Virus record (IMG/VR): IMGVR_UViG_2901201504_000001
Location: 1-64,000 of that record
Source: a virus
Taxonomy: Duplodnaviria > Caudoviricetes
Reading direction: 5' to 3' (one strand)
DNA: 64,000 bases
Under the pieces are notes generated by a model. It had not been told where the DNA came from. It saw nothing but the letters and a program-made list of their open reading frames with translations, and did not search any database. Shown piece after piece: positions 1-55,627 of the stretch (positions are counted from its first letter, which is position 1; every line of letters starts with the position of its first letter). The translations under genes and the position numbers were made by a program.

Positions 1-1032
1 ATGAATCAATCTTTATACAAGCCGACGAGACATTGGAAAGATATAGAGCTTTGGAAAGATGTAACGGATGAGCAATGGAATGATTGGCTTTGGCAGCTAA
101 CTCACACCATTCGTACATTAGATGATTTAAAGAAAGTAATTAATTTAACTCCAGAAGAAGAAGAAGGAGTTTATATATCTACAAAAACCATTCCTCTTAA
201 TATTACACCTTATTATGCATGGCTTATGAACCCTGATAATCCACGTTGTCCAATTAGAATGCAATCGGTTCCAATTGGTAAGGAAATGTATAAAACGAAG
301 TATGATAAAGAAGATCCACTTGAGGAAGACGAGGACAGCCCTGTTCCGGGGTTAACACATCGTTATCCTGATCGTGTCTTATTTCTCGTAACGAATCAAT
401 GCTCAATGTATTGTCGTTATTGTACGAGAAGAAGATTTTCTGGACAAATTGGGATGGGCGTTCCAAAGAAGCAAATTGATGAGGCGATTGCTTATATTCG
501 AAATACTCCAGCTGTTCGTGACGTATTATTATCTGGAGGTGACGGTTTATTAATTAATGATACTATTTTAGAGTACACCATAAAAAATCTACGAGAAATT
601 CCACATGTAGAAATTATCCGAATTGGTACAAGAGCTCCAGTTGTTTTTCCACAGCGTATTACAGAGAACCTATGCAATATCTTAAAAAAGTATCATCCAA
701 TCTGGTTGAATACACATTTCAATACGAGTATTGAAATTACGGAAGAATCCAAGAAAGCATGTGAAATGCTTGCGAATGCAGGAGTTCCTGTTGGCAATCA
801 AGCCGTTATTCTAGCGGGCATTAATGACAGCATCCCGATCATGAAGAAACTCATGCATGATTTAGTGAAAATTCGCGTGCGTCCATATTATATATATCAA
901 TGTGATATGTCGGAAGGAATTAGCCATTTCCGTGCACCTATATCAAAAGGGTTAGAAATTATCGAGGGATTAAGAGGTCATACTAGTGGTTATGCTGTTC
1001 CTACATCGTTTTTTATACACTGTACAGCGTGA
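1..1032 (+). CDS. kamA: 5' fragment of lysine 2,3-aminomutase (KamA), interrupted by prophage; last ~8 codons phage-derived
   Basis: Radical SAM motif CSMYCRYC and KamA-typical PGLTHRYPDRVL and SGYAVPT. The sequence then diverges (SFFIHCTA*) where intact KamA continues into the PLP-lysine motif DAPGGGGK. Confidence 0.95.
   Translation: MNQSLYKPTRHWKDIELWKDVTDEQWNDWLWQLTHTIRTLDDLKKVINLTPEEEEGVYISTKTIPLNITPYYAWLMNPDNPRCPIRMQSVPIGKEMYKTKYDKEDPLEEDEDSPVPGLTHRYPDRVLFLVTNQCSMYCRYCTRRRFSGQIGMGVPKKQIDEAIAYIRNTPAVRDVLLSGGDGLLINDTILEYTIKNLREIPHVEIIRIGTRAPVVFPQRITENLCNILKKYHPIWLNTHFNTSIEITEESKKACEMLANAGVPVGNQAVILAGINDSIPIMKKLMHDLVKIRVRPYYIYQCDMSEGISHFRAPISKGLEIIEGLRGHTSGYAVPTSFFIHCTA
1000..1004. other. 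attL crossover core (CCTAC) of the prophage
   Basis: KamA similarity ends at gttCCTACa, directly upstream of a serine integrase. kamA is the known integration gene of phi3T-type SPbeta relatives. Confidence 0.7.
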
Positions 1033-1083
1033 AATAGATATGTTACTATATCTTCAATTATAGCAAATATGGGGAGATATAGT

Positions 1084-2658
1084 ATGAATGATAATCGCTT
1101 AATAAAACATCTTGCATTATACCTAAGAATAAGTATAGATAAAAAAGATGAGAATGTTGAAACTCTGAAAAACCATCGTGAGATATTAACGGAGTACGCT
1201 AAGAGTCAAGGATATACTTTTGTAGAATACGGAGAAGTTATAAGTGGCGGTAAAACTGAAATCGATGACCGTGTTCAATTAAAAAAATTACTAGAAGATA
1301 TTGAGCAATATGATGCGATATTAGTAATGGAATTGAGTCGTCTATCTAGGAACGGCTTAGTTAGTCAAACTGTAAAACAATATTGCGTTGATTACGATAA
1401 GCCCATAATAACCCCTTATCAAACATACGACTTAGCTAATAGTGAAAATGATCGCCTAATGTTCGATGTAGGGAGCATGATATCAAGTCACGAACATAGT
1501 ATAATCGGCAAACGTTCTAAACTAAACAAAATTCAAATGGTGAAAAGTGGCCTGCATGTTACTGGTAATGTACCATACGGTTATATACGAAATCCGAAAA
1601 CAAAAAAACTAGAAATTGATGAAGAAGCAGCAAAAGTAATTAGATACATTTTCAAACTTCATTCACAAGGATTGGGTAGTTATAGAATAAGAGATATTCT
1701 CAATGAGGAAGGGTACAAGCCAGCAAAAGCTGATTATTTCAATCTACCTTCTATAAAAAGAATCATCCGGAATCCACATTATAAAGGCTGGACTGTAATG
1801 AATGATAGAAAGAAAGTTAAGAAAAATGGGAAATTTGTATATATAAATGTAGATACTATTACAGTAAAGAATACACACCCTGCAATTATTCCTGAAGATG
1901 AGTGGGATAGAGCTAACAAAGACAGAGAAACAAGAATATTGAAAGCAAAAAGTGTACGTGATAAACCTGCAGTTAAAACTGGGGTAACAATGCTAAAAGA
2001 CTTAATTTATTGCGGATGTTGTAGTAGAAAGTTAGAAGTTAGAAAAGATCACAAGAGTGTAACTGGATATGTAATTAGAACGTGCGATAATCTCTTATTA
2101 GAAACAGGGAAAAGATGTAATAATGCAGGCATAAGACTTGTATATGTAGAAGAGAAATTTATTGAAAAATTATCTATATTAAAAAATGAAATTATTGATA
2201 AAATTGAAATACTTGAGCAGCAAGGAGTTAACAATGTTGAAGAAGAGTATTTACAGAGAATTGAACATTTGAAAAAACAATTAAAAGAGATAGATGAGCA
2301 AGATAAAAGACTAATAGATTTGGCTACGGAGGGGTTATTTTCTATAGAACAAATAAAAGAGAAAAAGCAAGAAATAGTTAACAATAGACAATACTTAAAT
2401 GAGCAGTTGGATAAAGTAGAGTTTGACATGAAAAATTTAGTAACTGAAGATAAAATCAAGGAATTAAATACAATTGTTGAAAAGATTGATAAAGTAAAAA
2501 ATGCTTCACCCGAACATGCCAATGAATTATTAAAATCTTTTGTGAAAAGAGTAAATTATAGAAGACCAGTACCTGAACACTTGAAAGATTATCATTCAAA
2601 CACTAAAGAAAGAAGGTCACTAAGAGCTGATGTTGAAGTTGAATTTTACGATGTATAA
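1084..2658 (+). CDS. Large serine recombinase (SprA-like prophage integrase)
   Basis: YLRIS catalytic motif, LSRLSRN, recombinase domain (PYGY), zinc ribbon CGCC..C..C and coiled coil. RBS GGGGAG precedes ATG at 1084. Confidence 0.95.
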   Translation: MNDNRLIKHLALYLRISIDKKDENVETLKNHREILTEYAKSQGYTFVEYGEVISGGKTEIDDRVQLKKLLEDIEQYDAILVMELSRLSRNGLVSQTVKQYCVDYDKPIITPYQTYDLANSENDRLMFDVGSMISSHEHSIIGKRSKLNKIQMVKSGLHVTGNVPYGYIRNPKTKKLEIDEEAAKVIRYIFKLHSQGLGSYRIRDILNEEGYKPAKADYFNLPSIKRIIRNPHYKGWTVMNDRKKVKKNGKFVYINVDTITVKNTHPAIIPEDEWDRANKDRETRILKAKSVRDKPAVKTGVTMLKDLIYCGCCSRKLEVRKDHKSVTGYVIRTCDNLLLETGKRCNNAGIRLVYVEEKFIEKLSILKNEIIDKIEILEQQGVNNVEEEYLQRIEHLKKQLKEIDEQDKRLIDLATEGLFSIEQIKEKKQEIVNNRQYLNEQLDKVEFDMKNLVTEDKIKELNTIVEKIDKVKNASPEHANELLKSFVKRVNYRRPVPEHLKDYHSNTKERRSLRADVEVEFYDV

Positions 2659-23100: not shown

Positions 23101-23359
23101 CTTTAATAGTTCCATCAAGTTCTTTAGTAATTGTTTTTTCTTCCCTAAGAACACGATTTAAATCTTGATTAATTTTCTTTTGATTCTCCATTGCTTTAGA
23201 GAAATCATTAAGTGTTTTCGTTACCTTGTCATCAATTTCAACTTTTAACTTAAGTTTATTGATTTTCTTTTCGATACCTTTTATTGCCGTATTAATATCA
23301 CCAATTGTAGTACCGACATTGAGTGTAGCTCCAATTAGAATTTTAATATCATTATTCAT
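14117..23359 (-). CDS. Tail tape measure protein with lytic transglycosylase (SLT) and M23 peptidase domains (YomI/CwlP-like)
   Basis: 3080 aa; TMP core; SLT IIKKESSFN..AKGLMQLMP..AYNAG; M23 HQGTDFA..YMHM..GAHLHLQI. Confidence 0.93.
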   Translation of the reverse strand: MNNDIKILIGATLNVGTTIGDINTAIKGIEKKINKLKLKVEIDDKVTKTLNDFSKAMENQKKINQDLNRVLREEKTITKELDGTIKENIRHHLKSGEIIQKEIERRNQKNKVIQQEAKNLNSLTENYNKLIKEVERYDKAGNLKGKTSTYTDPKGNARTITTDTKGNVIGYKDVENLEKFEKAQVQLRNSLIQLARTGKYTNDELKQIGKGINIATTLKELDQMKAKLNGLQISDSLSYGQDKLRNSLKQLYDQGKVNEQFFKNFNKVIDSSKNISEINKISDALKRVQQNANNKNLQTKLLSDAKTLLNSNAKGLDRIGLTSLIRDLQAVPPSAKNASNSLKQMESQLLNIKRASNEANKSNISLLNAVSQAAIKFPLWAGISTIFYTATNSVQALIDNIYALDLQLVSIEKVLNNSDISSVFDNATVAAFKYGQTIENTLKSLGEISKLGFDLGEAEELNNNSMLLSTVGEFKDATDAANYLVAIMRQYKLEVSDTVDVVNSLNSVSNQTGATTEGIAQALSKSSANAAMAGVSFHELTGMVSQTVETLKISGNEAGTFYKTLFSRYLREESQSMIEGLGIKTKEMSGELRSATDVLSDLGSQWETFDAQTKNAISSQLGGGWHVAKVTSLLEKQTRVAENTIFSMDSYNSAVNEMKVFEGGLEYQTNQMIASFQLLSQTIGDNGVRQLIVLLLNSVTSLTTGFARLTEMSHGLNIYLPLIAAGAYGAVKAFKALQLASWGVKASFGWIGLGVVAIELLAGAFMGSSKASDINTESLYKNAQATDNQRQRLEGLIAQYNELAPSAGNNAQKQEELQSVLQNIQQIAPHLIESTGEYGNALSLNKEKADQYIGTLKEMTKEQLLQASTANGIEINTVNVDLDEVNNDLKAVEDAVKQRFDSIQKYQKEHGVFGTNDADKEYVERTKQLNKELSKSIEDGSRERSDKIRSQLMQDEIEYRNYVNNMKDSSGQLVEYSENVAKVQELEGKKKGLEERQKAMDEMTNSLDSNSKANIENADALSNVDAKAKDTLTATLDTEAAMGDLSGSVDGASSSLEGMGDSATNAAGDMGELKTVAEQLTGISSQNISAMQEQIGVYQMLSEQENLSANMKTMLTNATNILSEAYPHLIDGKNLNILAMQEELDANNLLLQAVELSAEGQLSAQEQQTVNAALGAKARIEIIKQEIKALEEAQNVYLSRITAQNEHGGDDLRSEKNYMITQNKIGSLESELAKIKIPEFKGFKSKLEGIVNSTNRGTSATKGNTKSTKDNTKAKKDNKKATEENIEAYKNSIYVADAFKIKLDEINAALTKQNNLKAKFASHSENYRKALREEIKLLEKQKKLTQDEAKSLANQIKSGKIKETGVIDISNSVTSGSSKDKAPAGAYKGKYHAEINKAANTYGVDPFLIASIIKKESSFNSKAVSSAGAKGLMQLMPGTAKYLGVKNSFDPLQNIMGGTKYIAQMLAKTGGDIKKALIAYNAGMGNLNKVLNSKSGEWKEPKDYYNKVLSYYKDYTGANYSNGNKASKASTTPSPQSQSSNAKSVADYYFNNFKITSNLGDKESFRSKPHQGTDFANGKAGSPIKAVNSGKVLVSGWSDSAGNWVVVKQDDGTVAKYMHMLKKPDVKKGQRVDAGTILGKVGNTGDSYGAHLHLQIEANGKPIDAVKYLKQLQNTVNTGVSKVTDINYPTSEKTVADQLAAIDQAKAELLELNSDVSNLEQQILDLKDQIVQSYVDEFEYKKNIQKNKVQDLENRTYHLDTSSKEYRKNLEEQRKSVNEQQRINELEIKKVKYLLSLKEITAKKREELKGTLTDLMNERYEIADKRDATTLNIINSAMAEYAERVEKVDFLLGESEYNLSNYNDTSKEYRAELERQNELLYQKDTQLFYQIQALEEYLKKEKLTTEALKEKQKELAALKEAYRESTNSLKENANAKIEWTFRVSDKSIDDAVQKIEFIEYKMSLLSDDAGLEVKSGLFDEMNNELIKVNAELETAIQQTIKLRTETAVKGGDTGIFDDRLDSLLEQRRSNVQKLKQNYQDMLSNVEEAKSKIEEAESKANEEASKQFDKLLRDTEKNINAFQKIIDKANNSIELLETDQFTRKQELLGEALLATKNKANQIIAEFNQLRNVTVYSEEDAEALRSRLEQLKQELVDTNKSTIEYVKALEQVNFDSLTHEARLADAEIERLNNRLRSNMELLDGGLLSGTDLDFSFSIPQGSSLDLASFINDPISDIETEEIRIQNIRESSYGEQIRQAEAFHEQMKQQAEQYRMSLVEAEKQFQEAIQKQIEESDKKIADAKAKADKNDKNKAKLSQKEEKQQLEQHIKDIEAAMAVGLSNYSGAYSQQWDGVLKVLEQKLQEAKSKLDSLLAVEYQADNVNVPSDSNGGKKISKSPRANDKTYVPDRKPSKSPRAGGVPAYQKGTDSHNGGLALISEQGKELVVLPNGKTFVSSDNGAELVDLPKGSHVIPNKQTEMLLKSNSSPTVKNIPAYANGTWDWDRLMWDNEYWAAYLRGSDPQAYNQMMDNQNGYNSNDYYRDDQGYLIDKRDGSWVQPSYDVPYYSSDYTPPSNNYYEPSYNEPYYDYNDYYNGSSSNYYPDYNPAPYIPSADESAQSRLNELRSSKATVYSDKFVSKYDPYNKYGSIYENTRKGKQTSIKGLQQQLDAIENSSNTSDIKDLTEQILNKQNEISKEDMSFLIESLTDLSEQREKNARALKEELIRELESTDMTEEMRNQYREEIMRQDDIIAQSLKERKSLVGEMFEYEQKLREKRLHMIKEDEQNIQRIIAETKLNNPDDPKLIELNNQLLQQQAKYTGEIAKIRTELINQMKQYEVGSYEWNLLNQQLLQNEIGYQKDRLSNLDEENDKEERNIALKEKKDELEKVKKDKRFSIIDKDGNETLTYDKGKVADLEKEIADIEKQYRKDDIKEEYSKELALLEERLNNGIQMSPEQLAESQKYLDSLVEMYKKLNVKDVETKHSGGIIGDVPASPLQELVNKLFNTKPNEQIVKGQLGELMIPSKNIPNLFTNIGNLVNSIIPRNQPQAATVQHHYHFQDVTVKANNMDEFLGSLEHYNRTK

Positions 23360-25569: not shown

Positions 25570-26583
25570 CTAACCAAATATCTGATTCTTCTCTTCTTCA
25601 AAGTCACGAAGGTCATAATGTGCTATAGTAGTTGCTACATTTTCATGATGGGCAACATATTTTGAAACTAACTCTAATTTGACACCTTGTTCTAGGAGGT
25701 AAGTTACACATGAGGCTTTAAATAGATGGGGGTTAATACGTCTGCCTAAAATGTCAGAGAGAGTATTTGTACAGAAATAATCAGCCCATGAGGATGACAT
25801 TTGATTAATGATCCCGTTGCTTTTTGTTGTGAAAATATATTCATGGTCATAACCACGCTTTTCAAGCCACAACTTAACATAAGATAAAGCTTCACGATTA
25901 ATCATATAAGGTTCAACCTTACCATCTTCTCCTCGACCTTTCAAACGAATATTATGAGTATAAACAAAACTTGCTTCTTCAGAGAATGGATAGTTAACAA
26001 TTTCTGATTTGAATTGTTTGATTTCTGAACGTCTAGCTCCTACATTAAACGCAACAGCTAACCAAGCCATTCCTAAATAGTTTTGATCGTCTTCAAGAAC
26101 TTTCATCATTTCTTTATATTCATCATAAGTTACTTTTACTTTTTCATATACAGTGTTTTTAGGTATAGCTGGCAAACCTCTAGTGAAATTTCTGAATAAT
26201 TTATAGTCCTCATATCCGTCTTCACCAACAATAATATTTTCAATATAGTTACATAGACTTGATACGCAAGCTTTCTTTAAGTTCTGCCCACTCGAAGACA
26301 TTTTTCTATTATCTCGTAAATAGCTTATGTACCTTAAAAAGTCTCTTTTTGTAACCTTATGTAATGGTTTATTATTCATTGAATTGCAAATATACCATCC
26401 AAATTGTTTTAAAGCAGAAGTGTATTGTTTCTTTGTTTCAGGACTATGGTTTTGTACAGAAATAAATTCTTCCACAAGTTCTCGATATTCTGAGTTAACC
26501 TGTTTCCACATTTCATTAGTTATTTCAGGAAGCTTTCGTGCTCTATCCCTGAGCATGTTCATATTAATACTTTTTTCACTCAA
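25570..26583 (-). CDS. Tyrosine recombinase of the morphogenesis region (YomM-like)
   Basis: SAM-like N-domain, GARRSE, KG, PHLFK, HHEN..TTIAHY. Confidence 0.85.
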   Translation of the reverse strand: MSEKSINMNMLRDRARKLPEITNEMWKQVNSEYRELVEEFISVQNHSPETKKQYTSALKQFGWYICNSMNNKPLHKVTKRDFLRYISYLRDNRKMSSSGQNLKKACVSSLCNYIENIIVGEDGYEDYKLFRNFTRGLPAIPKNTVYEKVKVTYDEYKEMMKVLEDDQNYLGMAWLAVAFNVGARRSEIKQFKSEIVNYPFSEEASFVYTHNIRLKGRGEDGKVEPYMINREALSYVKLWLEKRGYDHEYIFTTKSNGIINQMSSSWADYFCTNTLSDILGRRINPHLFKASCVTYLLEQGVKLELVSKYVAHHENVATTIAHYDLRDFEEEKNQIFG

Positions 26584-38229: not shown

Positions 38230-40002
38230 TTAGTAGTAGACGAGGTCATCGTCAATATCATAATCATCAACACTACTATTCAATTTTCTTTCTAGTAAAG
38301 TGGCAACATAATTTCCGTAAGATGAACTACTGTAGCGGTCTTTACGCTTACCATTAGGTTCTTTTAACTTAACTTGTCCACTATCATTATATTCTGCTTC
38401 TAAGTTAATCATTTCATTTATTAATAATGTAAATTGAGCATAAGATGACATTAACATTGCTTTTGTTTCTTCGGGTAGATTTTCATACCCTTTATATTTT
38501 CTCATTTGCTCTCTACCTTCAATTTCATTAATAGGTAGTCTGATTCTACCTCGTTTAAATCCATCACGGAAAAGATATGCAATTTCACTATTCAATTTTG
38601 CACTTGCTTTTATACTATAAATTATTTTATCGGCATTTGGATAACTACATCTTTCCGCCATTGTTTCATCATTGATACAAGAAATAGGCTCATACTCTTT
38701 GGAACGTTCCTTATCAAATAATGGTTGTGTTAATTGGTCAAAGATACCTAATCCAATGTTTTGAGTATCAAGAACCATATAGTCGCAATCAAAATCTTCA
38801 TACAATTGTCTAATTCTTATGGCTTGGGTAACTGTATTTCCACCAACCATACTTTCCATATAAGAGAGATATCGATCATAGCCTTTAGTAGTAGGAATCA
38901 GCCTTAATATTGTATAAACAGAGGCATCGTTATCTTTACCGGCCATAGCAGCGATGTCACAACTAACTAATCTTATTTCACCTGTTTTCTTTGTTTCATA
39001 TTTGAAAGAAACATCCTTAATTAACCCATAATAATCAGGCGGGAAAAGGGGAGCTGCTAATTTTCTATTTTTCTCTAAGTCTTCAAATTTAAAGAACGCT
39101 TTCTCTGATTCTCCGAACCAAAGAGCTTCCATTTCCATAGCCCAACCAATTTCATCAAAATCTTCTTCCGACATTTCATCTTTTACTTGTTCCTCATCTA
39201 GTAGTCCTTCTTTAATAGCTAATTGATAAGGTAGTCCACATACGAAGTATTTAGCTGATTTCATCATCGAATTGTAATAAGTGAGGAAACGATTAAATGA
39301 CCAATGTGATTTATACCAACATGATGATAAATACACTTCTTTGTTTCGTTCTTTTAAATGAGCATATTCATCTTTTTCAAGGTATTTTGGGGAGCGTGGG
39401 GCAGTTAAAAATTTCCGCAAAACTTTTGAGATAACTTGGAAATCTACCATCCTAAATTCATCAACGATAAGTAAATTAGCACGTTTACTTCTTGCTCCAT
39501 CATTAGAAGCTACAATTTTAATCCAGCTACCATTATGGAATTCAACTTTAGCATCATTAGTTGAGGTTTTTAAATCTGATATTTCTCTAGCTAGGTTAGG
39601 GGAGATTTTCCTCAAATCATCAATCTTTTCAATAACTTCTCTAGATTGCCCCTTCGTACCACTGGCAATTATTATTTTAGTTTGAGGAAAGAGGATTGCT
39701 CGTACACAGCAATAGATGGAGGTTAAAAAAGTTTTTCCTTGTCCACGACTTGCTAGGTACATAAAATAATGATTATGATTCATCATGAAGATTAGAATGA
39801 TTTGGAATAACTTGAGATTGATTCCTAAATATTCTTTAACAAATCTATGTGGATTAGCTCGATAAAAAGAAGCCCATATACCAATACCGTCCATCAATCT
39901 TTCAGACTTAGATTTTTTGTTAAAATTTCTACCTTTTTTGAATATATTTGTTCCACGATGTGCTTTATTTCTATCGACTTCAAAATTATTAATGGATGCC
40001 AT
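38230..40002 (-). CDS. Terminase large subunit (YonF-like)
   Basis: Walker A ASRGQGKT, Walker B LIVDE, nuclease SCDIA..KDRYSS. Confidence 0.92.
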
Positions 40003-40885
40003 CTACAACATCCTCATCTTCAGATACAGGTTCTTTTACTGTATATTTATTAACCTCATCCCAATATTCATCCTCATAATCATTTTTAATTCCAAGCATT
40101 CTAGTTAAATGACCTAAGAAAAAGACTCGAATATACTTACTTATTCCATCAACATCTTTCCATTTAGAATCAGGCTCAGGAATTGGCTGTTCATTTTCAT
40201 ACTTTTTAATAAGAGTGCCAAATGATTCTTGTTCAACAGCATTTGCTCCTGTTTCTTGAACTGGTTTAAGATTACTAGAACCAAGTAAATCTTGTAATGT
40301 TTTAAGTTGTTGGTCAACTTTTTCGTTTAAAGCTCTACGTTTCTTTATGTCTAATTGTGTAAGGCATATTTCTTTAATAAGCAATTCCATACCTTTGGAA
40401 TCACATTCATACCTATTAAGAAAGTCTTCATATTCACTGTGCAACCAATAATAGTCTTCACTATCAAATCCTCTACCAAAGAATTTGATTAATTCATTCA
40501 TATCAAGAGTTTCTTCTTCACTAAAATTCAGTTCTACTTCACTTGATGTGCTAGGAGTAATTGCTTTATTGAAATCACTATCATTCCATGTCAAGTCTCT
40601 ATTTTGCTTCATTGCTAATCTACGCATATATTCTTTAAAAGGATTAGTGGGATTAGTAACAAATGAACCCTCGTAATCTTCGGTGAGAAAAGGTCTATCA
40701 ATAGATCTGAGTACATTTTTTAGTGACTCAATATTTTTGAAATCAATAATTTCTTCCAAGCAAAGTTTACAGATACCTAATTTTCCATCTGAGTGAATTA
40801 AAGTTGAGGATGCCATATAATAATCGCTCAACTTTTTCTCTCTTTTACATTTTGAGCAACGTTTTGTTTCTACATTTTTACTAAT
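39989..40885 (-). CDS. YonG-like protein, putative terminase small subunit with N-terminal Zn finger
   Basis: CSKC..CKLC; directly upstream of terminase large; RBS GGTGGTG points to a start near 40885. Confidence 0.6.
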
Positions 40886-41075
40886 AATAATCACCACCAA
40901 TTTTTGTGCAAAATAAAAAGAACATTTTATAAAACACACAAGTAGGGAAGGGAGAGGGAAAACCTACTCATGTGCTTCTAAAACGTTCTAAGAAAGGGGA
41001 AGGATGATGTTTTCGAGGTAATAAAACCTCAATGCTACACTCAAATTTATTAAGTGCAGCTTGAAACTTCATTAT

Positions 41076-47988: not shown

Positions 47989-48101
47989 TTATATTTCATC
48001 TCCTTTATTAATATTAATTTATTTAACTTTTATTTATCATAACGGACATATCCTAATTTTGTAAAGTGTAATTTTAATTTTTCTGAAAAAAATTTACAAA
48101 G

Positions 48102-48131
48102 TCATAAGTACAAGCAGATATTACATAATCT
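48102..48131 (+). promoter_or_regulatory. Putative sigmaE promoter of wHTH-tubulin operon
   Basis: TCATAAG-N15-CATAATCT versus B. subtilis sigmaE consensus TCATATT-~15-CATACGAT. Confidence 0.55.
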
Positions 48132-48180
48132 TTGAATATCTTTAAGAATCTACAAAGATTTTTAAAAATCTATACAGATA
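48111..48180. repeat. 10-bp periodic direct repeats (tubC-like iterons)
   Basis: AATCTTTGAA/TATCTTTAAG/AATCTACAAA/GATTTTTAAA/AATCTATACA in tandem just before the RBS. Confidence 0.65.
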
Positions 48181-48193
48181 CAGGAGGATTTTC

Positions 48194-48475
48194 ATGGATT
48201 ACTTTGTTCACACTGTACTCAAATCTAGTCAAGAAGAGTTAGTATTGCTCAATGTATTAAATGAACATCAGGCTTACAATACTTATACATTTCTAACAAA
48301 GCAACAAATCAAAGACCAATCACATTTATCCGAATCAATTGTAAGAAAAACTCTGCTCATATTAGAAAGACTTCAATTTATTAATTCAATTTGCACGAAC
48401 AAAACAAAAGGGTACTATCTTACGAATCATGGTTTATTAGCAATTGAAAAAATCCTAGAGGGAGTGAATGAATAA
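48194..48475 (+). CDS. Winged-helix DNA-binding protein (TubR-like adaptor)
   Basis: LTKQQI..LSESIVRKTLLILERLQFI..YYLTNHG wHTH; stop/start coupled to tubulin. Confidence 0.75.
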   Translation: MDYFVHTVLKSSQEELVLLNVLNEHQAYNTYTFLTKQQIKDQSHLSESIVRKTLLILERLQFINSICTNKTKGYYLTNHGLLAIEKILEGVNE

Positions 48476-49581
48476 TGATAGGTGTAATTGGTTTAGGTCA
48501 AGCTGGAGGAAATGTTGCAAACTTATTTGCCGAAAGAGGAATTCAAACTGCTGCAATTAACTATTCATCCAAAGACCTAGAGACTTGTAATCACATAGAA
48601 AACAAATTAAAACTCATTGGATCAGAAGGAGTTGGTAAACAAAGAGAGGAAGCAATTCGACTATTTCACAACAATTATGAATCAGCTTTAATATTCATTA
48701 AAGAGCATTTCTCACAACCTTCTGTTGAATTAATCTTTATTGTTTTTAGTGCGGCAGGAGGGAGTGGAAGTGGTATAGCTTCAATATTATCCGAGCTACT
48801 ACTCAACGAAATGCAGGAAAAAACTTTCATAATTTGCCCCATCATTCCTACTGTCTCAGAGTGCATTACAGCGCAATTAAACACTCTAGATACATTGACT
48901 AGCCTAAGTGAATTAGAAGCCTGTATCATTCCATTGGACAACGAGAAGGGGATGTCTAAGGGCGCTAAAGACAAATCTTACCACTTTATAAATCAGACGT
49001 TTGTAGACACTATTTTAACGATAGCTGACTACACTAATATGCATTCAATCACAGGAAACTTTGATGCAAGGGACTTGCGTACATTGTTGTCTACAACTGG
49101 ATTCTGCTCAATTGGACAATGTGACATTTCACATCTAAAGAATGAAGACATATCCGTAAATATCGAAGTTGTATCTAAAAAAGTAAGAACATCGCATTTT
49201 GAGTCAATCTTCACATCTCCTTCATTGGAACAAATAGTACGATCAGGCTTAATATTTGATGGGCAAGAATCATTAATGTATTGTGTCGATCTTGATAAAA
49301 TTCACAATCAATTTCCCAATCAACCTTTGGATGTTTTTGAAGGCTATTATACAGAAGAAAAAGGGAGAGTAATATCTATTTACTGTGGTTTAAAATTTAA
49401 CAGTACAAGATTAAATCAGATTGAAAAATTAGCAACTGAACGAATAGAATCTTTCCAAAACACTCATCAAAGCACATCTATATCCATAAAAAGACCAACT
49501 CTTAAAAGCCCAATTATGTCATCTAAACCTAAGAAATCGCTATCTGATATTCTAAATAAACACAAGAAAACTAATATATAA
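48475..49581 (+). CDS. Tubulin/FtsZ-superfamily GTPase (TubZ-like)
   Basis: GLGQAGGN, G.G (GVGK), signature AAGGSGSG, DNE, T7 loop GNFDARD; basic C-terminal tail. Confidence 0.9.
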   Translation: MIGVIGLGQAGGNVANLFAERGIQTAAINYSSKDLETCNHIENKLKLIGSEGVGKQREEAIRLFHNNYESALIFIKEHFSQPSVELIFIVFSAAGGSGSGIASILSELLLNEMQEKTFIICPIIPTVSECITAQLNTLDTLTSLSELEACIIPLDNEKGMSKGAKDKSYHFINQTFVDTILTIADYTNMHSITGNFDARDLRTLLSTTGFCSIGQCDISHLKNEDISVNIEVVSKKVRTSHFESIFTSPSLEQIVRSGLIFDGQESLMYCVDLDKIHNQFPNQPLDVFEGYYTEEKGRVISIYCGLKFNSTRLNQIEKLATERIESFQNTHQSTSISIKRPTLKSPIMSSKPKKSLSDILNKHKKTNI

Positions 49582-49590
49582 AAATAGTAA

Positions 49591-49732
49591 ATTATCATTA
49601 CCCGTCAGTTTACCTGATACTTTATTTTCATTACCTAATCGTTACCCATTATCATTACCAGTTGATTTTACAATATCGGTAATTACCCAAACAGCAGGTA
49701 ATGGAAAATCGGTAAGTATAAAACGTTGGTAA
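49591..49732. repeat. TTACC/GGTAA repeat array
   Basis: TTACC at 49598, 49610, 49631, 49642, 49655, 49683; GGTAA at 49678, 49697, 49711, 49728; ATTATCATTACC occurs twice. Confidence 0.7.
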
Positions 49733-49780
49733 TAAACCTTTAGATTTAATTTTCACATATAATTCTTCCTTAAATAAAAT

Positions 49781-49841
49781 GAAAAAAGAAGTTTGAGTTT
49801 CAGTTGTAAATTTTCTTCTGAATTCAAGCTTCTTTTTTTTG
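49781..49841. terminator. Long imperfect hairpin, probable bidirectional terminator
   Basis: AAAAAAGAAGTTTGAGTTTTCAG...CTGAATTCAAGCTTCTTTTTTTT. Confidence 0.6.
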
Positions 49842-49845
49842 AAAT

Positions 49846-50022
49846 TTATTCAATGATTCCTACTTCATGTAAAAATGTTAAAAGTTCATGTAATCTTTTT
49901 CTGCTCATTCCTGTTTTTTCTATTACATAATCAGAGGTGAATTCCAACTTCTCTTCAAACTTAGGAGGCTCGTATGTACCCCATGAACCAATTGACATAT
50001 GTCCACGTACATTTTCACTCAT
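49846..50022 (-). CDS. Small protein with HTH-like C-terminus (58 aa, not in ORF track)
   Basis: RBS GGGAGG; MSENVRG...VIEKTGMSRKRLHELLTFLHEVGIIE. Confidence 0.55.
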   Translation of the reverse strand: MSENVRGHMSIGSWGTYEPPKFEEKLEFTSDYVIEKTGMSRKRLHELLTFLHEVGIIE

Positions 50023-50102
50023 TTACCTTTGCCTCCCTTGTTCGTTCTATCTAAAAAATCATTTACTGCATCTCTTGGATCTTGTTTGTAAATAAATGAC
50101 AT
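50019..50102 (-). CDS. 27-aa peptide coupled to downstream HTH-like gene
   Basis: RBS GGAG; MSFIYKQDPRDAVNDFLDRTNKGGKGK; ATGA overlap. Confidence 0.35.
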   Translation of the reverse strand: MSFIYKQDPRDAVNDFLDRTNKGGKGK

Positions 50103-50165
50103 GTTTTCCAACTCCGTTTATAATTATCTTAATAGTAGTCTTACCTCAAGGAGTTGACGTTATAC

Positions 50166-50597
50166 ATGAAAGAAAAAGTTACTTTAACCGTAGATATAAC
50201 TATGAAAAACTATGTAAATATTAAAAATCTCATTGGTTATTGTAAGTACAACAACTTGATTATCAGCGAAAATTTACCTACCACTGACGAAGAAATAATT
50301 AATGCTGCACTATTTTCTTACTTTGAGAAGATTGAAACAATCGTAAGATATTATAATGTGGATAAATCAGCATTGAATTTAGAAGAAGGAACAAAAATTA
50401 AAAATAGGATAAAAGAAATATTAAAGATGACTGGTATGAAACAGAAAGAATTATCTGAATTAACAGGTATTGAAACAGCTACATTATCTGCAATGTTATC
50501 TAACAGAAACCAACCATCAATCGAAAACTTTTTGCGTATATGGACTGTGTTAGGGTGTCCACCAATTGAAGAAGTATTCTACAGAGAGAAGGAGTGA
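50166..50597 (+). CDS. XRE-family transcriptional regulator (C-terminal HTH)
   Basis: KNRIKEIL..MKQKELSELTGIETATLS..NQPS. Confidence 0.85.
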   Translation: MKEKVTLTVDITMKNYVNIKNLIGYCKYNNLIISENLPTTDEEIINAALFSYFEKIETIVRYYNVDKSALNLEEGTKIKNRIKEILKMTGMKQKELSELTGIETATLSAMLSNRNQPSIENFLRIWTVLGCPPIEEVFYREKE

Positions 50598-50640
50598 TCC
50601 TTCTTTTTTGTTGTTTGTAGATTTTTTTAAAATTTATTAT

Positions 50641-50670
50641 ACATAGTACAATCAACGTCATCCATATACT
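50641..50670 (+). promoter_or_regulatory. Putative sigmaE promoter of membrane protein/FtsK operon
   Basis: ACATAGT-N15-CATATACT, same spacing as the promoter at 48102. Confidence 0.5.
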
Positions 50671-50696
50671 TAATCAAACAACCGGAGGTGATTAAC

Positions 50697-50879
50697 ATGA
50701 TGTTTGCAACTGTATTAGCTTTGAAAATTGGAGCATTAGGAAGTGTGGGTGTAGGAATTGCAAGTGCATTAAAATTATTTCATAACTACGAATGGAAACA
50801 ATCATCTAAGAAAGGTGTGAAATATGATGACAACTATGACAGTGAATCTTTGCGTGAAAAAGCAAGACGAATTAATTAA
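50697..50879 (+). CDS. Small membrane protein
   Basis: RBS GGAGGTG; N-terminal hydrophobic helix. Confidence 0.65.
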   Translation: MMFATVLALKIGALGSVGVGIASALKLFHNYEWKQSSKKGVKYDDNYDSESLREKARRIN

Positions 50880-51393
50880 ATACAATGATTTTAATCAATT
50901 TGTTTTTCGACAAACTGAGGAGAGTACCAATGTAAATTTTCATTTACCAACAATAAAGGAGGTGAAAAGTTTACCAAAGAAAACGAAAAAGAAATTTCAC
51001 AAAATTGCAGTATCATTTCTAGCAACTGTAGCAACTTACATGGTATCCGCATCAAAATCAATGGCAAGTACTGTACTGCCATCAACATCAAACGACATCA
51101 TAAACATTCCGGCAACAGCACAGGGACTTCCTCCAGAACTTATGCAGATATTCGGAACAGGTCTAGTAATATTAGTAGCTGTAGCAGTTCTACTTTGCAT
51201 GGCAATGTTGATGGGAGCAGGCCTATTAAGAGCAATGAGGAAGAAAAAAGAAGCGAGCGAATGGACAGGAGACATCATAAAAGGATTAGTTCAAGTACTT
51301 TTAGCACCACCAATCATATTTTTAATCTTCTATATAGCAACAATCCTGTTCACCGGTTCAAGTTGGTTCATCAATCCTTTCGTAATACGCTAA
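50824..51393 (+). CDS. TrbC/VirB2-pilin-like membrane protein
   Basis: Signal-like segment ending SMA, then two TMs separated by RKKKEASEWTGDIIKG, a pilin-like topology. Confidence 0.5.
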   Translation: MMTTMTVNLCVKKQDELIKYNDFNQFVFRQTEESTNVNFHLPTIKEVKSLPKKTKKKFHKIAVSFLATVATYMVSASKSMASTVLPSTSNDIINIPATAQGLPPELMQIFGTGLVILVAVAVLLCMAMLMGAGLLRAMRKKKEASEWTGDIIKGLVQVLLAPPIIFLIFYIATILFTGSSWFINPFVIR

Positions 51394-52496
51394 AAAAGGT
51401 AGCTATCCCATTTGCAGTATTATCTACATCCTCACTATTATTTACATTAAAAGCTTCTGCTGAATCTTTTTGGGAAAGAGGGGATATCACAAAACATGGT
51501 TTATTTAATAAAGAGAATATCTTAGAACGTGGCGGATCAATTCAGGAATTTAAAGATGTTACTGAAAAGCTAGGTATGATTCTCGATAAAATCATTAAAG
51601 GAATGGATTGGATTGCATACGCTTGGTATCATCCTGATGAAATGTCTATTAAACTCCTAACATCTATCTACGAAGTACTAACTAAAGTCGTACTAACTAC
51701 CCCTACATTCATTTTCAATAATACTTTCATTCAAAGCATTTCATTAAAATTCTCATTAATTAGCATTGTTATAGTCACTGCTTTAACTATCGTTGAATCA
51801 ATTATGCAAATTACAAGACAAAAACATACGAAAATCAAAACAATTATAAAACGCTATTTTGGAGTGGTTACTGTTACTGGTTTTGCTCCATTCTTATTTG
51901 AAAAAGGCTTTGACTTTATTAACAAATTAACTTCATCAATTATTTCATTAGGTGGAGATTTCAGCAGAGCTACTACCACTGTGCAAACTATGGGAATGGC
52001 AAATCTGGATGTGTTAATTATGTTTGCATTTGATATTACTCTTTTAGCTATGTTAATTCCTATAATGCTTCAAAACGGTAGACGATGGTGGGATTTAATG
52101 TGTTTATCTGCAACTGCACCAATAGCCGGAGTCGCATTTGTATTTGATCGATACAGACATTACTTTGATTCCTGGTGGAGTTCGGTAAAACGTTTATCAA
52201 TGATTCAATTAGTGTATGGTGTGTTTATCACTTTACTAGGTGTATTTATTTTTGCCACTAGAGATATGGTCACAGGTTGGGAATTGATTATCAAATTACT
52301 TATAGCAGCAGGAGGAATGTGGAGATTATTAAATCCACCAAGAATAGTTCTGAATTTAACACAAGGAGACGGTAAAGATGTATTCAACATGTATGACGAC
52401 TATAAATCTGGAGCTAAAAAAGTCATTGATACTGTTACATTCAAAAACTTTAGACCTGTCAATTTCATCAAAAGTAAATTAAAAAAGAATAAATAG
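51363..52496 (+). CDS. Polytopic membrane protein, TrbL/VirB6-like (start uncertain)
   Basis: Signal peptide ending KASA, five to six TMs, RWWDL..ATAPIA..YFDSWWSS pattern as in VirB6/TrbL. Confidence 0.55.
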   Translation: MVHQSFRNTLKKVAIPFAVLSTSSLLFTLKASAESFWERGDITKHGLFNKENILERGGSIQEFKDVTEKLGMILDKIIKGMDWIAYAWYHPDEMSIKLLTSIYEVLTKVVLTTPTFIFNNTFIQSISLKFSLISIVIVTALTIVESIMQITRQKHTKIKTIIKRYFGVVTVTGFAPFLFEKGFDFINKLTSSIISLGGDFSRATTTVQTMGMANLDVLIMFAFDITLLAMLIPIMLQNGRRWWDLMCLSATAPIAGVAFVFDRYRHYFDSWWSSVKRLSMIQLVYGVFITLLGVFIFATRDMVTGWELIIKLLIAAGGMWRLLNPPRIVLNLTQGDGKDVFNMYDDYKSGAKKVIDTVTFKNFRPVNFIKSKLKKNK

Positions 52497-52508
52497 TGAG
52501 GTGTTAGC

Positions 52509-52622
52509 ATGATAACCTTATTAGTTTGCAATACAATAATGCTCATCATAAATTCATTTGTCTTATATGTAAACAGTGACTTAATAAGCAAGGTGATGGA
52601 AGATGATAAGAATAGGTACTAA
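52509..52622 (+). CDS. 37-aa single-TM peptide (not in ORF track)
   Basis: RBS GAGGTG; MITLLVCNTIMLIINSFVLYV...; overlaps FtsK start. Confidence 0.45.
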   Translation: MITLLVCNTIMLIINSFVLYVNSDLISKVMEDDKNRY

Positions 52623-54843
52623 ACCAAATAAAACCATTCAGAAAAACAGCAATTTTACGTATAAATTAGATGTATTTCATGACAAATTGATACAAAAGTA
52701 TATGGATTCCGACCATATTTCAACTAACATATACGGTTTTGAAATACTATCAAATTCTGAAATATACACTTTTACACCTACCTTAGATCGATTAGAATAC
52801 TCAATTGTAGAACAAGATTTATCCACTTATTTTAACTCAAATACTTTGCAATTATATGAAATACAAATGAAAAATCCTTTGTTTCTTCCTATATATAATA
52901 AATTCCAACAATCTCTCATAGAGCAAATATTCAATATCCAACAAAGCTATCCTGTTCTCATCCAAATCTTAATACAAAAAATAAATAAATGGAGAGATAA
53001 TGCAATCTCACAGTATGAAGAATTCTTGAAGGGGAATGATTATCCATCTGAAAATAGGATTCTTAGAAATACACAAAGCAAGATCATAAATGTGCTTAAT
53101 AAATTCGCTAACTTCCAAGTGAAAAGAAAACCGATTCAAGACGTAGAAGATAAAATTCTTAGTGATAACTTTAAGATTGAAATACGCTTTGCTATAGAAG
53201 ACAATGAGGGAGAATTTGAGTTAACAATTAATAAATTTCTAAAACAATATGATTACTATAATCAATTAGAGCTAGTCAAAATATATGATGTAGATAGTCA
53301 AATACAATTGATTAAAAATAGACAAATGAAGTCATATACACTTAATCAATTGTCCACTTCAGAAATTAATTCTCTCTTTTCATCTGATAAGTCAGATATT
53401 ACTCCTAAACAAGAAGTAATGATAACGTCCAATAGAAAAAGTCAACAAACAAGTAATCCTGAACAATATAATCATTTACTTGATGTGCTACCGAAATATG
53501 AAAAACAATCAAATGATATTGATAATGAAATAGTTGATAGATTGATACAAAGCTTCAAACGTACAAAAATAACGAACAAATTAATAAAAATAGGTGAGGT
53601 AGCAAGAGGAGCAACATTGCAAAAAGTTACTCTAAAAATCCCTAATGATATAGTCTATACGAACATTGAGAAGAATCTAAAGAATATACAGGCCACATTG
53701 GGTAATGATGCAATTAGTATGGAAATTAGCGATACTCCTGACTCTGTAGATTTCTATATTCCATGTAGTGAAAGAGAAGTAGTTTATTTACGAAATGTAT
53801 TAGAATCAGACGAATTTATTGAGCAAGTAACTGAATTAACTTTGCCATTAATATTAGGTGAAGATAGCATAGGTAAACCATTGCTTTCTGATTTAGCAGA
53901 GTTAAAGCATATTCTTATAGCAGGAGCAACTGGTAGTGGTAAATCAGTATTTCTTAATGCATTGATACTTACTATGATTATGTACAAAGAACCTGGGGAA
54001 TTAAAGCTGATACTTATTGATCCAAAGAAAGTAGAACTAGTGCCATTTAGTAAGTATCCTCAAGTTACCTTTGTAGACGATATGAATAAAGCAACAAATA
54101 CATTTGAGACATTAATCAATGAGATGAATAAACGTTACGATACTTTTGCAAGTAAAGGATGTAGGAATATTGCTCAATACAATTCTAAGTTAGACATAAA
54201 AGTACCATACTTAGTTTGTATTGTAGACGAATTATCAGATTTAATGGATACGCATGGTAATGAAATTGAATCACATATTATAAGATTAGGTCAGAAAGCT
54301 AGAGCAGCAGGTATACATTTAATATTATGTACACAGAAACCTTCAGTAGATGTTATTACAAGCAGGATAAAGAGTAATTTACCAAGCGCCATTAGCTTTA
54401 GATTGAAAGCACAGAGCGACTATAGAACTGTATTTGGTAAAGGTATTCCTTATCATCTATTAGGAAAAGGTGATGGAGTAGCGATGTTAGAAGGGAATAG
54501 TAAAGAGTTTATTAGGTTTCAATCACCTGTCATTGATCTTGATGACAATACAACCGTAGATATTATTGATAAGATAGCAGATACCTATGAAGGAATTCAA
54601 CATGAACCAATAAAAATTATTGAAACTGAAGAACCGATTGATAAACTAAAGCGTATTATAGCTAGTACAGGTGAGACTAGGATATCTGAATTACAAAAAG
54701 AGATGAAAATAAGGATTAATCTAGTCTCAGAATTAATGAAGCAGTTGGTTACCGAGGAATGGGTAATTAAAGAAGGAAAAGGATATAAGATAATTGTTAG
54801 TGAGAATGAGTTAGATAAATGGAGGGAAGTTGCTGAACAGTGA
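52603..54843 (+). CDS. FtsK/SpoIIIE-family DNA translocase lacking N-terminal TMs
   Basis: Alpha domain, HILIAGATGSGKS, IDPKKVEL, CIVDE, RAAGIHLILCTQKP, LLGKGD; C-terminal gamma-like wHTH (ISELQKEMKIRIN). Confidence 0.92.
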   Translation: MIRIGTKPNKTIQKNSNFTYKLDVFHDKLIQKYMDSDHISTNIYGFEILSNSEIYTFTPTLDRLEYSIVEQDLSTYFNSNTLQLYEIQMKNPLFLPIYNKFQQSLIEQIFNIQQSYPVLIQILIQKINKWRDNAISQYEEFLKGNDYPSENRILRNTQSKIINVLNKFANFQVKRKPIQDVEDKILSDNFKIEIRFAIEDNEGEFELTINKFLKQYDYYNQLELVKIYDVDSQIQLIKNRQMKSYTLNQLSTSEINSLFSSDKSDITPKQEVMITSNRKSQQTSNPEQYNHLLDVLPKYEKQSNDIDNEIVDRLIQSFKRTKITNKLIKIGEVARGATLQKVTLKIPNDIVYTNIEKNLKNIQATLGNDAISMEISDTPDSVDFYIPCSEREVVYLRNVLESDEFIEQVTELTLPLILGEDSIGKPLLSDLAELKHILIAGATGSGKSVFLNALILTMIMYKEPGELKLILIDPKKVELVPFSKYPQVTFVDDMNKATNTFETLINEMNKRYDTFASKGCRNIAQYNSKLDIKVPYLVCIVDELSDLMDTHGNEIESHIIRLGQKARAAGIHLILCTQKPSVDVITSRIKSNLPSAISFRLKAQSDYRTVFGKGIPYHLLGKGDGVAMLEGNSKEFIRFQSPVIDLDDNTTVDIIDKIADTYEGIQHEPIKIIETEEPIDKLKRIIASTGETRISELQKEMKIRINLVSELMKQLVTEEWVIKEGKGYKIIVSENELDKWREVAEQ

Positions 54844-54931
54844 CTTCTCTTATTTTTGTATAGTAGGTGTATATATGTGAAGGTGAAAAATTGGATTTAA
54901 AATAAGCCCCCTTATAAAGGAGGCTTTTCTA

Positions 54932-55627
54932 CTATCTATAAACTGATTTAGGAATATTTGCTTTTGGGTTTCCTACAGCATAAGGTGCTAATTCATATTC
55001 TTGATAAATCACACTTATTCCTGTATTAGTGAAAATGAAAGTTGTACCCTTATTTAGTTTTATGTCCTTAACAGTAATATCATCAAACATGATATCTTGT
55101 TTTTTGAGAAAATTATAGATATGTTGCTTTGTCTTTTGTGCCTTAGCTGGCTTAACTACATCTGGTATTGTAACTAGTTTACCAGTTTTGATGTTAAAGT
55201 TATATGATTGAACAAATCTACCGCCATGAACTCCTCCAGTGTACATATCAGTATAGACTAACACACTAATATAATTACTGTCTTGGTAAGCTAGTTTGAA
55301 TGTAGTTTTATAACGATACTGACATGAAAATGGAAATTCACTACAATATTCTTCATCATAATTCTCTTCCATTGAATTCATTAGTGCGTTATAACCATCA
55401 TAGTGTCCTTTTCCCACTTGACGAAAGAAGAGATTGATATTGTGTTGTATTTGAGTATTTTTAATTCCTGATAATTTAGGATAAGCAATGTTTTTGTTAC
55501 CTTTGTAATACACCGTTTCTGTCTTAATAGGATTAGAAGCTGCATTAGCCTGTATTACTGAAGTAGAAAATAGACCAATTGCAAATACTAACAGAATAAT
55601 AACTCTTAGAAATTTGATGTTCTTCAT
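54932..55627 (-). CDS. Secreted DUF4163/DUF3298 (RsiV/PdaC-like) protein
   Basis: Signal peptide ending ANA; IAYP..YTGGVHG..YNFN..YQEYELAPYAVG. Confidence 0.8.
   Translation of the reverse strand: MKNIKFLRVIILLVFAIGLFSTSVIQANAASNPIKTETVYYKGNKNIAYPKLSGIKNTQIQHNINLFFRQVGKGHYDGYNALMNSMEENYDEEYCSEFPFSCQYRYKTTFKLAYQDSNYISVLVYTDMYTGGVHGGRFVQSYNFNIKTGKLVTIPDVVKPAKAQKTKQHIYNFLKKQDIMFDDITVKDIKLNKGTTFIFTNTGISVIYQEYELAPYAVGNPKANIPKSVYR

Follow-up and report, generated by a model that had tools for sequence, protein, structure and literature searches.

A TubRZ-like type III cassette with a candidate tubC in an integrated SPbeta-like prophage

Tubulin-type (type III) DNA segregation has so far been studied on plasmids and on one plasmid-prophage, c-st, and the occurrence of intact, conserved cassettes of this type in integrating SPbeta-like prophages raises the question of why a phage that resides in a chromosome should carry a DNA-moving spindle. 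The locus considered here lies in a window of 64,000 nucleotides, i.e., the first 64 kb of the IMG/VR record IMGVR_UViG_2901201504_000001 (137,119 bases, provirus, 100% complete), where a gene for a small winged helix-turn-helix (wHTH) protein, tubR, is directly followed by a gene for a tubulin-like protein, tubZ (Table 1). The evidence available to us consists of the homology and the fold of the two proteins, the coupling of their genes, the phased sites found in their leader and the conservation of these sites, the integration of the element and the wide distribution of the cassette. We regard it as probable that the locus is a TubR-TubZ-tubC (type III) cassette of an SPbeta-like prophage, with TubR coating the leader, keeping the operon repressed and linking phage DNA outside the chromosome to filaments of TubZ. 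A first-pass annotation of the same DNA had already read a TubRZ-like type III locus with tubC-like repeats, and every part of that reading that could be checked holds.

TubZ carries a Tubulin/FtsZ GTPase domain (PF00091, E 1.4e-13, 52 bits against a cut-off of 33), and its T1 (GxGxxG), T4 (GGxxGSG) and T7 (NxDxxD) loops are found in the motifs GLGQAGGN (residues 6–13), GGSGSG (95–100) and NFDARD (195–200). The residues of these loops (G6, G8, G11, G95, G96, G98, G100, D197 and D200) show no variation across 30 relatives that are 36–69% identical, which bears out the earlier description of a tubulin with intact GTPase motifs. Compared with the PDB, the single sequence retrieves c-st TubZ (3v3t, 4xcq; E 1.8e-12), while a profile of the 30 relatives recovers c-st TubZ over nearly its full length (E 2.8e-35 and 5.5e-35), ahead of the CetZ-like 3zid (1.9e-20), FtsZ (1.4e-13), RepX (3.8e-12) and the TubZ of pBtoxis (~3e-10); the best 60 of the 223 matches of this profile include no PhuZ chain. 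By this measure, the protein is nearer to characterised TubZ than to FtsZ, CetZ, tubulins or PhuZ, and it is a TubZ of the c-st/pBM400 branch; 38–40% identity is shared with the TubZ of 18 Priestia pBM400-type plasmids, and 38–39% over 88% of its length with that of pBM400. Its last 38 residues include nine K/R against one D/E, and the C-terminal consensus KKSxSDILxKYKR is conserved among the 30 relatives.

For the product of the upstream gene, Pfam and NCBIfam give no match above cut-off (Pfam returns sub-threshold matches only), and its identity comes from solved structures. The single sequence matches 4asn (TubR) at E 2.9e-7 and 6tey (c-st TubR fragment) at E 0.016, and a profile of 22 relatives matches 4asn over the full length at E 1.5e-32 and 6tey at E 5.8e-8. 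An AlphaFold2 (AF2) model built on the alignment of these 22 relatives (mean predicted local distance difference test 92.2) was compared with known folds using Foldseek, which places first 4asn_A, the TubR of pBM400 (template-modelling score, TM, 0.89; root-mean-square deviation 1.2 Å; 30% identity over 88 columns), then c-st TubR, with pBtoxis TubR at rank 8. Profile and structural matches thus agree that the wHTH protein is TubR, with the expected size (~90–100 amino acids), the TubR fold and a gene directly upstream of, and coupled to, tubZ. The model further has an N-terminal helix (residues 2–9) and a C-terminal helix (78–92), two features that are tied to dimeric TubRs and missing from the monomeric c-st TubR (PMC6009700; here and below, statements from the literature refer to the parts of each source that were available), and these helices fit the palindromic half-sites described below.

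The open reading frames (ORFs) are as first described, and the overall observation is confirmed. The wHTH gene had been called coupled to the tubulin gene: the two overlap by 1 nt (TAATG), the final A of the tubR TAA stop being the A of the tubZ ATG, and an AGGAGG at 48182 lies 6 nt 5' of the tubR ATG. In the leader, ATCT cores start at 48128, 48138, 48148 and 48168, and AGAT cores at 48116, 48156 and 48176, that is, four in one orientation and three in the other. Together they make up two 12-bp palindromes of the form ATCT-N4-AGAT (at 48148 and 48168, 20 bp apart) and two AGAT-N8-ATCT pairs (at 48116 and 48156), arrangements that occur nine and six times in the whole record, for shuffle means of 4.9 and 5.1. 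Tandem Repeats Finder reports a period of 10 with 4.5 copies and 62% matches (48127–48171, score 41). In a motif-free test, the self-identity of 48115–48194 at lag 10 amounts to 0.514 for a record mean of 0.290 (z 3.8), a value reached at only seven places in the 137,119 bases, while lags 5–9 and 11–15 show no rise (z <= 1.5). Likewise, nowhere else in the record do 80 bp hold as many as seven ATCT/AGAT (mean 0.99). Hence, the claim of about six 10-bp-periodic ATCT repeats between promoter and ribosome-binding site stands for the phase and the location, yet has to be amended for the repeats themselves, which are seven half-sites in both orientations and not all direct. The cluster lies upstream of tubR and overlaps the candidate promoter of the operon, which is the position of tubC in known systems, where it is built of repeats, upstream of tubR and overlapping the promoter (PMC6009700, PMC5016525). 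The tubC-tubR-tubZ layout named in the first-pass annotation is therefore recovered, with the leader repeats as putative TubR-binding sites.

Table 1. Coordinates, strand and supporting evidence for the features discussed in the text (positions refer to the window).
Feature	Position	Strand	Evidence
tubR, 93-amino-acid winged-helix centromere-binding adaptor	48194..48475	+	PDB 4asn match
tubZ, 368-amino-acid tubulin/FtsZ-fold GTPase with basic C-terminal tail	48475..49581	+	PF00091, c-st TubZ match
Array resembling tubC: seven half-sites (ATCT/AGAT) with a 10-bp phase, from candidate -10 to ribosome-binding site	48116..48179		letters and periodicity tests
Candidate sigma-A-type promoter, TTTACA-18-GATATT	48093..48122	+	9/12 matches; position inferred
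Convergent array directly after tubZ, 10 TTACC/GGTAA (5 direct, GGTAATTACC palindrome, 3 inverted)	49598..49732		motif count
YonO-like phage RNA polymerase, 845 amino acids	45169..47706	-	phrog_8308 E 1.1e-295
Truncated host kamA (lysine 2,3-aminomutase), left prophage junction	1..1032	+	TIGR03820 E 4.9e-157
Large serine recombinase (integrase)	1069..2658	+	phrog_95 integrase E 8.8e-88

From these elements, a mechanism can be proposed. TubR dimers would bind the ATCT/AGAT half-sites that extend between the -10 region and the ribosome-binding site; these half-sites are one helical turn apart and would therefore all lie on the same face of the DNA. The resulting nucleoprotein coat would shut off the tubRZ promoter (autoregulation), and the same coat would serve as the handle gripped by the basic C-terminal tail of TubZ, whose GTP-driven filaments would then move the DNA bearing the array. 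As the chromosomal copy segregates with the chromosome, the cassette is expected to be of use only while the phage genome exists as a free circle.

To what extent the cassette is kept as a unit can be judged from its relatives, which were gathered from at least 30 genome loci and 46 viral loci (L numbers below). A scan of viral contigs with the single TubZ sequence returned no relatives, while an alignment-based scan found them. Altogether, 128 proteins match TubZ at E <= 1e-3, several of them on contigs of 1–5 Mb, and one Bacillus altitudinis TubZ cluster has 84 members. Plasmid records with a TubZ match amount to 20, i.e., 18 from Priestia (pBM400-type) and two from Bacillus, of 122–125 kb. 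The 11 IMG/VR records that were checked, including that of the window, are all proviruses (120–178 kb for the other ten), and proviruses of many Bacillales genera carry the cassette. Among the 40 loci listed (TubZ identity of at least 34%, window included), a TubR-sized ORF abuts tubZ in 38, and the remaining two have tblastn matches to TubR. yonO-like genes (53–61% identity) are located just upstream in L003, L005, L040-42, L044, L049, L050, L054, L057 and L062.

The leaders of these loci are periodic in most cases. Once those more than 70% identical had been removed, 38 loci yielded 25 distinct leaders, window included, of which 17 show significant periodicity at lag 10 (p<0.05, relative to random places of the same locus); since L003 and L042 represent one leader offset by a few bases, it is fairer to count 16 out of 24. 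Cores of AGAT/ATCT spaced in 10-bp steps are readily seen in L066, L048, L039, L043, L047, L059 and L060, and ATCT-N4-AGAT or AGAT-N8-ATCT is found again in L039, L043, L059 and L060. In a ~95%-identical relative, a single change falls within the leader (48100–48193), namely 48173 T>C, which leaves the cores intact, for 125 changes in 2437 nt overall.

Two other explanations of the cassette have to face this distribution. Phages are known to target cell division, and the tubulin fold is common to FtsZ (TIGR00065 matches TubZ at E 3.9e-9, far below its cut-off); TubZ might thus act on the host, for example on FtsZ or on cell division during infection, with TubR as no more than its transcriptional repressor. 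We find this very unlikely, given that TubZs of DNA partition, and not FtsZ, are the closest relatives with a solved structure, and that adaptor gene, phased sites and basic TubZ tail are kept together in the 38 loci out of 40, which is the signature of a DNA-coupled system. According to the other explanation, the cassette is an inert passenger, the relic of a plasmid-prophage ancestor, as might be suspected from its absence in SPbeta, phi3T and other isolates and from the integrated state of the element in the window. This is the least credible of all explanations, because the frames are intact and the catalytic residues invariant across relatives of such low identity, because the close relative P0001 keeps 98% protein identity in TubZ at ~95% DNA identity, and because so many genera have the cassette in their proviruses.

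What, then, is the element that carries this cassette? Judging by its sequence, it is an SPbeta-like (Spbetavirus-like) temperate phage integrated in kamA, as argued by the identity of its YonO, the truncated kamA and the adjoining serine recombinase. Its YonO-like protein is 58.6% identical to yonO of SPBc2 (SPbeta) across 96% of its length and matches 41 phage records, 27 of which are Bacillus phages; the gene adjoins tubR on the opposite strand, its transcription pointing away from tubRZ. The kamA ORF spans positions 2–319 of the 417 of the TIGR03820 profile and continues with eight unrelated residues and a stop, so that the host gene is cut at about residue 335, and the serine recombinase (529 amino acids) comes directly after. 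SPbeta-like phages are known to integrate in this gene, which is restored in sporulation (10.1101/2021.11.22.469490), while the right junction and the 3' part of kamA are absent from the 137-kb record. As hallmarks of SPbeta-like phages, we considered YonO, a yonN-type HU, a very large tape-measure protein with lytic domains, a recombinase in a sporulation-linked gene and a genome of ~125–140 kb. The element has YonO, HU, a tape-measure protein of 3080 amino acids, portal, terminase, integrase, the kamA junction and a suitable length; its PHROG and Pfam matches also include endolysin, tail proteins, PhoH, a DNA helicase and an FtsK/SpoIIIE-like protein. The integrated prophage of the first-pass annotation is thus recovered from the truncated kamA and the serine integrase at the left end and from the provirus class of IMG/VR. 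Being integrated, the element leads us to file the two proteins under the TubR and TubZ families and the locus as type III-like, not as a plasmid partition system.

A few other features of the prophage deserve mention. The tape-measure protein (14117–23359) has transglycosylase and metallo-endopeptidase segments, with PHROG matches at residues ~1250–2100. Besides the serine integrase of the left end, a tyrosine-recombinase-like gene (25570–26583; phrog_1, E 1.7e-28) is found within the structural block. An Rfam scan of the window gave no match.

If the element itself is integrated, relatives may nonetheless exist as free molecules. Two circular records labelled as plasmids, NZ_CP154907.1 (124,561 bases) and NZ_CP097468.1 (122,487 bases), each carry tubR-tubZ, a PF07508 recombinase and a portal-like gene, and the former has, like the window, yonK-HU-yonO genes immediately upstream of tubRZ. 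In a quick maximum-likelihood tree, the TubZ of both records nest in provirus groups with branch lengths <= 0.03, and the same phage types therefore occur integrated and as circles. The first-pass annotation had reasoned that an integrated element needs no partitioning and that an extrachromosomal phase is implied. These two circular sister records of 122–125 kb speak for such a phase, which nevertheless stays an inference, for the free form could be that of ordinary lytic replication, as with AlpAC of the prophage CGP3; a stable episome and an induced culture are equally possible sources of the circles. Accordingly, two uses of the cassette come out about level in our estimation: the stabilisation of an episomal (plasmid-like) carrier state alternating with integration, or the positioning of the genome while it replicates in excised form, once the phage has been induced or has infected a cell. 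For plasmid carriage, c-st provides a precedent (PMC8026635, PMC6009700).

On its other side, the cassette is bordered by a second repeat cluster, which the first-pass annotation overlooked even though it is far more conspicuous than the leader repeats. This TTACC/GGTAA array reaches 10 copies per 160 bp (0.34 expected), while the next-best place in the record has five. A comparable convergent array, with 8–10 copies within 200 nt, follows tubZ in L005, L035/36, L039, L060 and L062; variants of the motif follow it in L043 (TTACY) and L038 (GTTTCCC), and in L045 the array comes after tubRZ with one extra small ORF in between. An array of another type, ATCGTAAA, follows tubZ in L003, L040-44, L057 and L048/49/54. 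SPbeta-like phages thus have at least three classes of array motif: TTACC(C), GTTTCCC and ATCGTAAA. SPbeta itself, from which tubRZ is absent, has a homologous array of the ATCGTAAA type in its yonP-yonR gap (L081:3730-3960), and therefore tubRZ is an insertion beside a pre-existing element of the SPbeta family. That gap is the region reported for genome opening and the start of packaging (10.1101/2021.11.22.469490), and the physical ends of the Perkons phage genome are found at a distance of 1.6 kb from the yonO-like gene.

Being the strongest repeat cluster, with its 10 copies in 135 bp, and recurring in similar convergent form directly after tubZ in the window and in the five groups of loci just named for TTACC/GGTAA, the array might be taken for the centromere, or for a second centromere block, in which case the 10-bp sites upstream would be merely an operator. 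We rejected the array as tubC because SPbeta carries its homologue without tubRZ (the type that follows tubZ in L003, L040-44 and L057). Moreover, TubR diverges among the loci of the TTACC class (tblastn at E 1e-4 finds none for L039, L060 and L062), whereas the motif is constant, and reviews put tubC upstream of tubR in all the systems studied, as far as the available parts of PMC6009700 and PMC5016525 go. A centromere downstream of tubZ is therefore improbable.

The array also lends itself to another interpretation, in which the cassette is a plasmid-type replicon, the excised phage replicating as a plasmid with the repeat-rich DNA beside tubZ as its origin. In megaplasmids of the Bacillus cereus group, tubZ/tubR units with flanking repeats are reported as minireplicons that sustain the replication of pBtoxis, pXO1 (repX), pBMB228 and pBMB28, and the putative origins of such minireplicons are A+T-rich with direct or inverted repeats (PMC4219350); here, a dense repeat array comes directly after tubZ, and RepX is found among the PDB matches of the TubZ profile (see above). 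However, the record encodes its own DNA helicase, and SPbeta-like phages replicate without TubZ (no match in the phage collection described below). SPbeta having the same type of array without tubRZ, the array is not a TubRZ-dependent origin. Finally, a role in partition is what the literature describes for c-st TubZ and pBM400 TubR, the closest relatives with a solved structure (PMC6009700, PMC5016525). We therefore hold the replicon interpretation to be unlikely as well and retain the type III cassette with tubC in the leader. As to the array, conceivable roles are those of a pac site, an origin or a set of regulator sites. Seen as single-stranded DNA, it shows no unusual folding (z -1.75).

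A pac site read by the terminase-adjacent gene was also considered, and is not supported, since the class of the array does not track the terminases. The candidate small terminase (a label guessed from gene position) and the large terminase (TerL) are closest to those of provirus G003, of the ATCGTAAA class (51% and 77% identity), while only 23–34% and 24–28% identical, respectively, to those of the TTACC-class G002, G005 and G010; the class of the array tracks the right-hand early module instead. The genome is mosaic in this respect, with different affinities in 38230–40939 and 48000–55000: the region right of tubZ resembles the TTACC-class phages. In the ~95%-identical relative (a contig of run X2), similarity ends abruptly left of 47764, at the end of a minus-strand ORF of 74 amino acids, and a recombination boundary is therefore placed just beside the tubRZ cassette. 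In L039, L060, L043 and L038, the gene right after the array encodes a product that starts with MYKITS.., has a G(I/H)DF motif and is, we presume from its appearance, an M23-type peptidase.

Set against known systems, the cassette combines features of several. PhuZ of the jumbo Pseudomonas phages is likewise a phage tubulin, which positions phage DNA in the lytic cycle; to our knowledge, it has neither a TubR adaptor nor a centromere. A match of TubZ to the PhuZ family exists (phrog_4733, E 2.1e-8), weaker than the TubZ matches, and, given the adaptor and the sites, the locus is not a PhuZ-type spindle. The closest solved TubR is that of plasmid pBM400 (Priestia/Bacillus megaterium, PDB 4ASN), which is the same in fold and length, with the same tubR-tubZ order and overlap, but belongs to a 54-kb plasmid, not to an integrating phage of 137 kb, and the pBM400-type leader L004, unlike that of the window, shows no significant lag-10 periodicity (p 0.27). 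The system of Clostridium botulinum phage c-st, which also comprises TubY, resembles the present one in being phage-borne, in providing the best solved match for TubZ along with a match for TubR, and in the presence of a distant YonO-like protein (25% identity) in the phage. The c-st centromere is located upstream of tubR, where it takes in a portion of the promoter (PMC6009700). In contrast, c-st is a non-integrating plasmid prophage, and its tubC is split, with two other iterons (TTGAC and A/TGAA). The type III archetype, pBtoxis of Bacillus thuringiensis, has the same three-part layout, an autoregulating TubR and a tubulin-like motor (PMC5016525), but its TubZ is only a distant match of ~420–430 residues in the PDB chains, against 368 here, and its tubC is made up of two blocks of direct repeats. 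In functional terms, the closest precedent is AlpA-AlpC-alpS of the integrated Corynebacterium glutamicum prophage CGP3, in which the co-transcribed adaptor AlpA binds its own upstream promoter sites and links circular phage DNA to cytomotive filaments, AlpAC being induced early on excision and needed for efficient replication of the phage DNA (PMC4446434). The filament of AlpAC is actin-like, however, and bears no sequence relationship to TubRZ.

Several observations weigh against our interpretation of the locus as a working type III cassette. TubR binding, autoregulation, TubZ filament formation and the timing of all three are what we infer, not what we observed. Regarding the leader, the ATCT/AGAT motif was picked after viewing the sequence, which leaves the lag-10 statistic as the motif-free test, and a 10-bp phasing of A/T-rich words can also stem from intrinsically bent promoter DNA. 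Periodicity at this lag is not significant in eight of the 25 leaders, among which are L004, L035 (the nearest neighbour of the window in the tree, p 0.47) and L056 (p 0.80). The promoter scan does no better than chance, with 11 such sites in the region for 13.1 expected (a terminator scan of the region is at chance level too). Regarding the setting, the element of the window is integrated and, as such, is not the low-copy free replicon that a partition system serves, while the circular 'plasmid' records may be excised, replicating phages caught at DNA extraction rather than stable episomes. Finally, TubZ is unmatched in 50,697 phage records, SPbeta-like isolates included (tblastn, E 1e-5), in a collection that may omit records near the window; no SPbeta-like isolate having a match, the cassette is therefore dispensable for the SPbeta life cycle as such.

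Beyond the array, tubRZ is followed by a module (50154–54843) that encodes an Xre-type helix-turn-helix protein (147 amino acids), two small membrane proteins (63 and 189 amino acids), a membrane protein of 433 amino acids (phrog_3750) and an FtsK/SpoIIIE-like ATPase of 746 amino acids. This FtsK-like module follows tubRZ in the window and in nine of 24 distinct relatives (10 when L038 is counted for its shorter twin L037), including non-SPbeta elements of Paenibacillus, and it may be a phage 'DNA translocation operon' of the type of PMC3357382. At its boldest, our interpretation would make tubRZ-bearing SPbeta-like phages dual-lifestyle elements, one lineage lysogenising either by integration into a sporulation gene or as a low-copy TubZRC plasmid. 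Where the FtsK-like module is present, the two modules might then act as a single unit for DNA delivery, with TubZ filaments bringing the free genome to a pole or septum and the translocase pumping it across, into the forespore or a neighbouring cell, with no need of a virion; we consider this unlikely.

A literature search found no published link between TubZ, or a tubulin-like protein, and SPbeta-like phages, and the word tubulin does not occur in the available part of the comparative preprint on SPbeta (10.1101/2021.11.22.469490). One lead to TubZ in an integrative element (PMC13239906) proved to deal with nothing more than a plasmid marker gene.

As for why a chromosomal phage should keep such a spindle, it might reflect a hidden episomal state in one of the classic model families of phages, organise phage replication as the tubulin equivalent of the actin-based AlpAC, or be connected with the FtsK-like 'DNA translocation' genes of phages. 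Since the SPbeta-like family infects genetically tractable Bacillus, the question is directly testable, and the conserved ATCT/AGAT half-sites offer a concrete candidate centromere to mutate.

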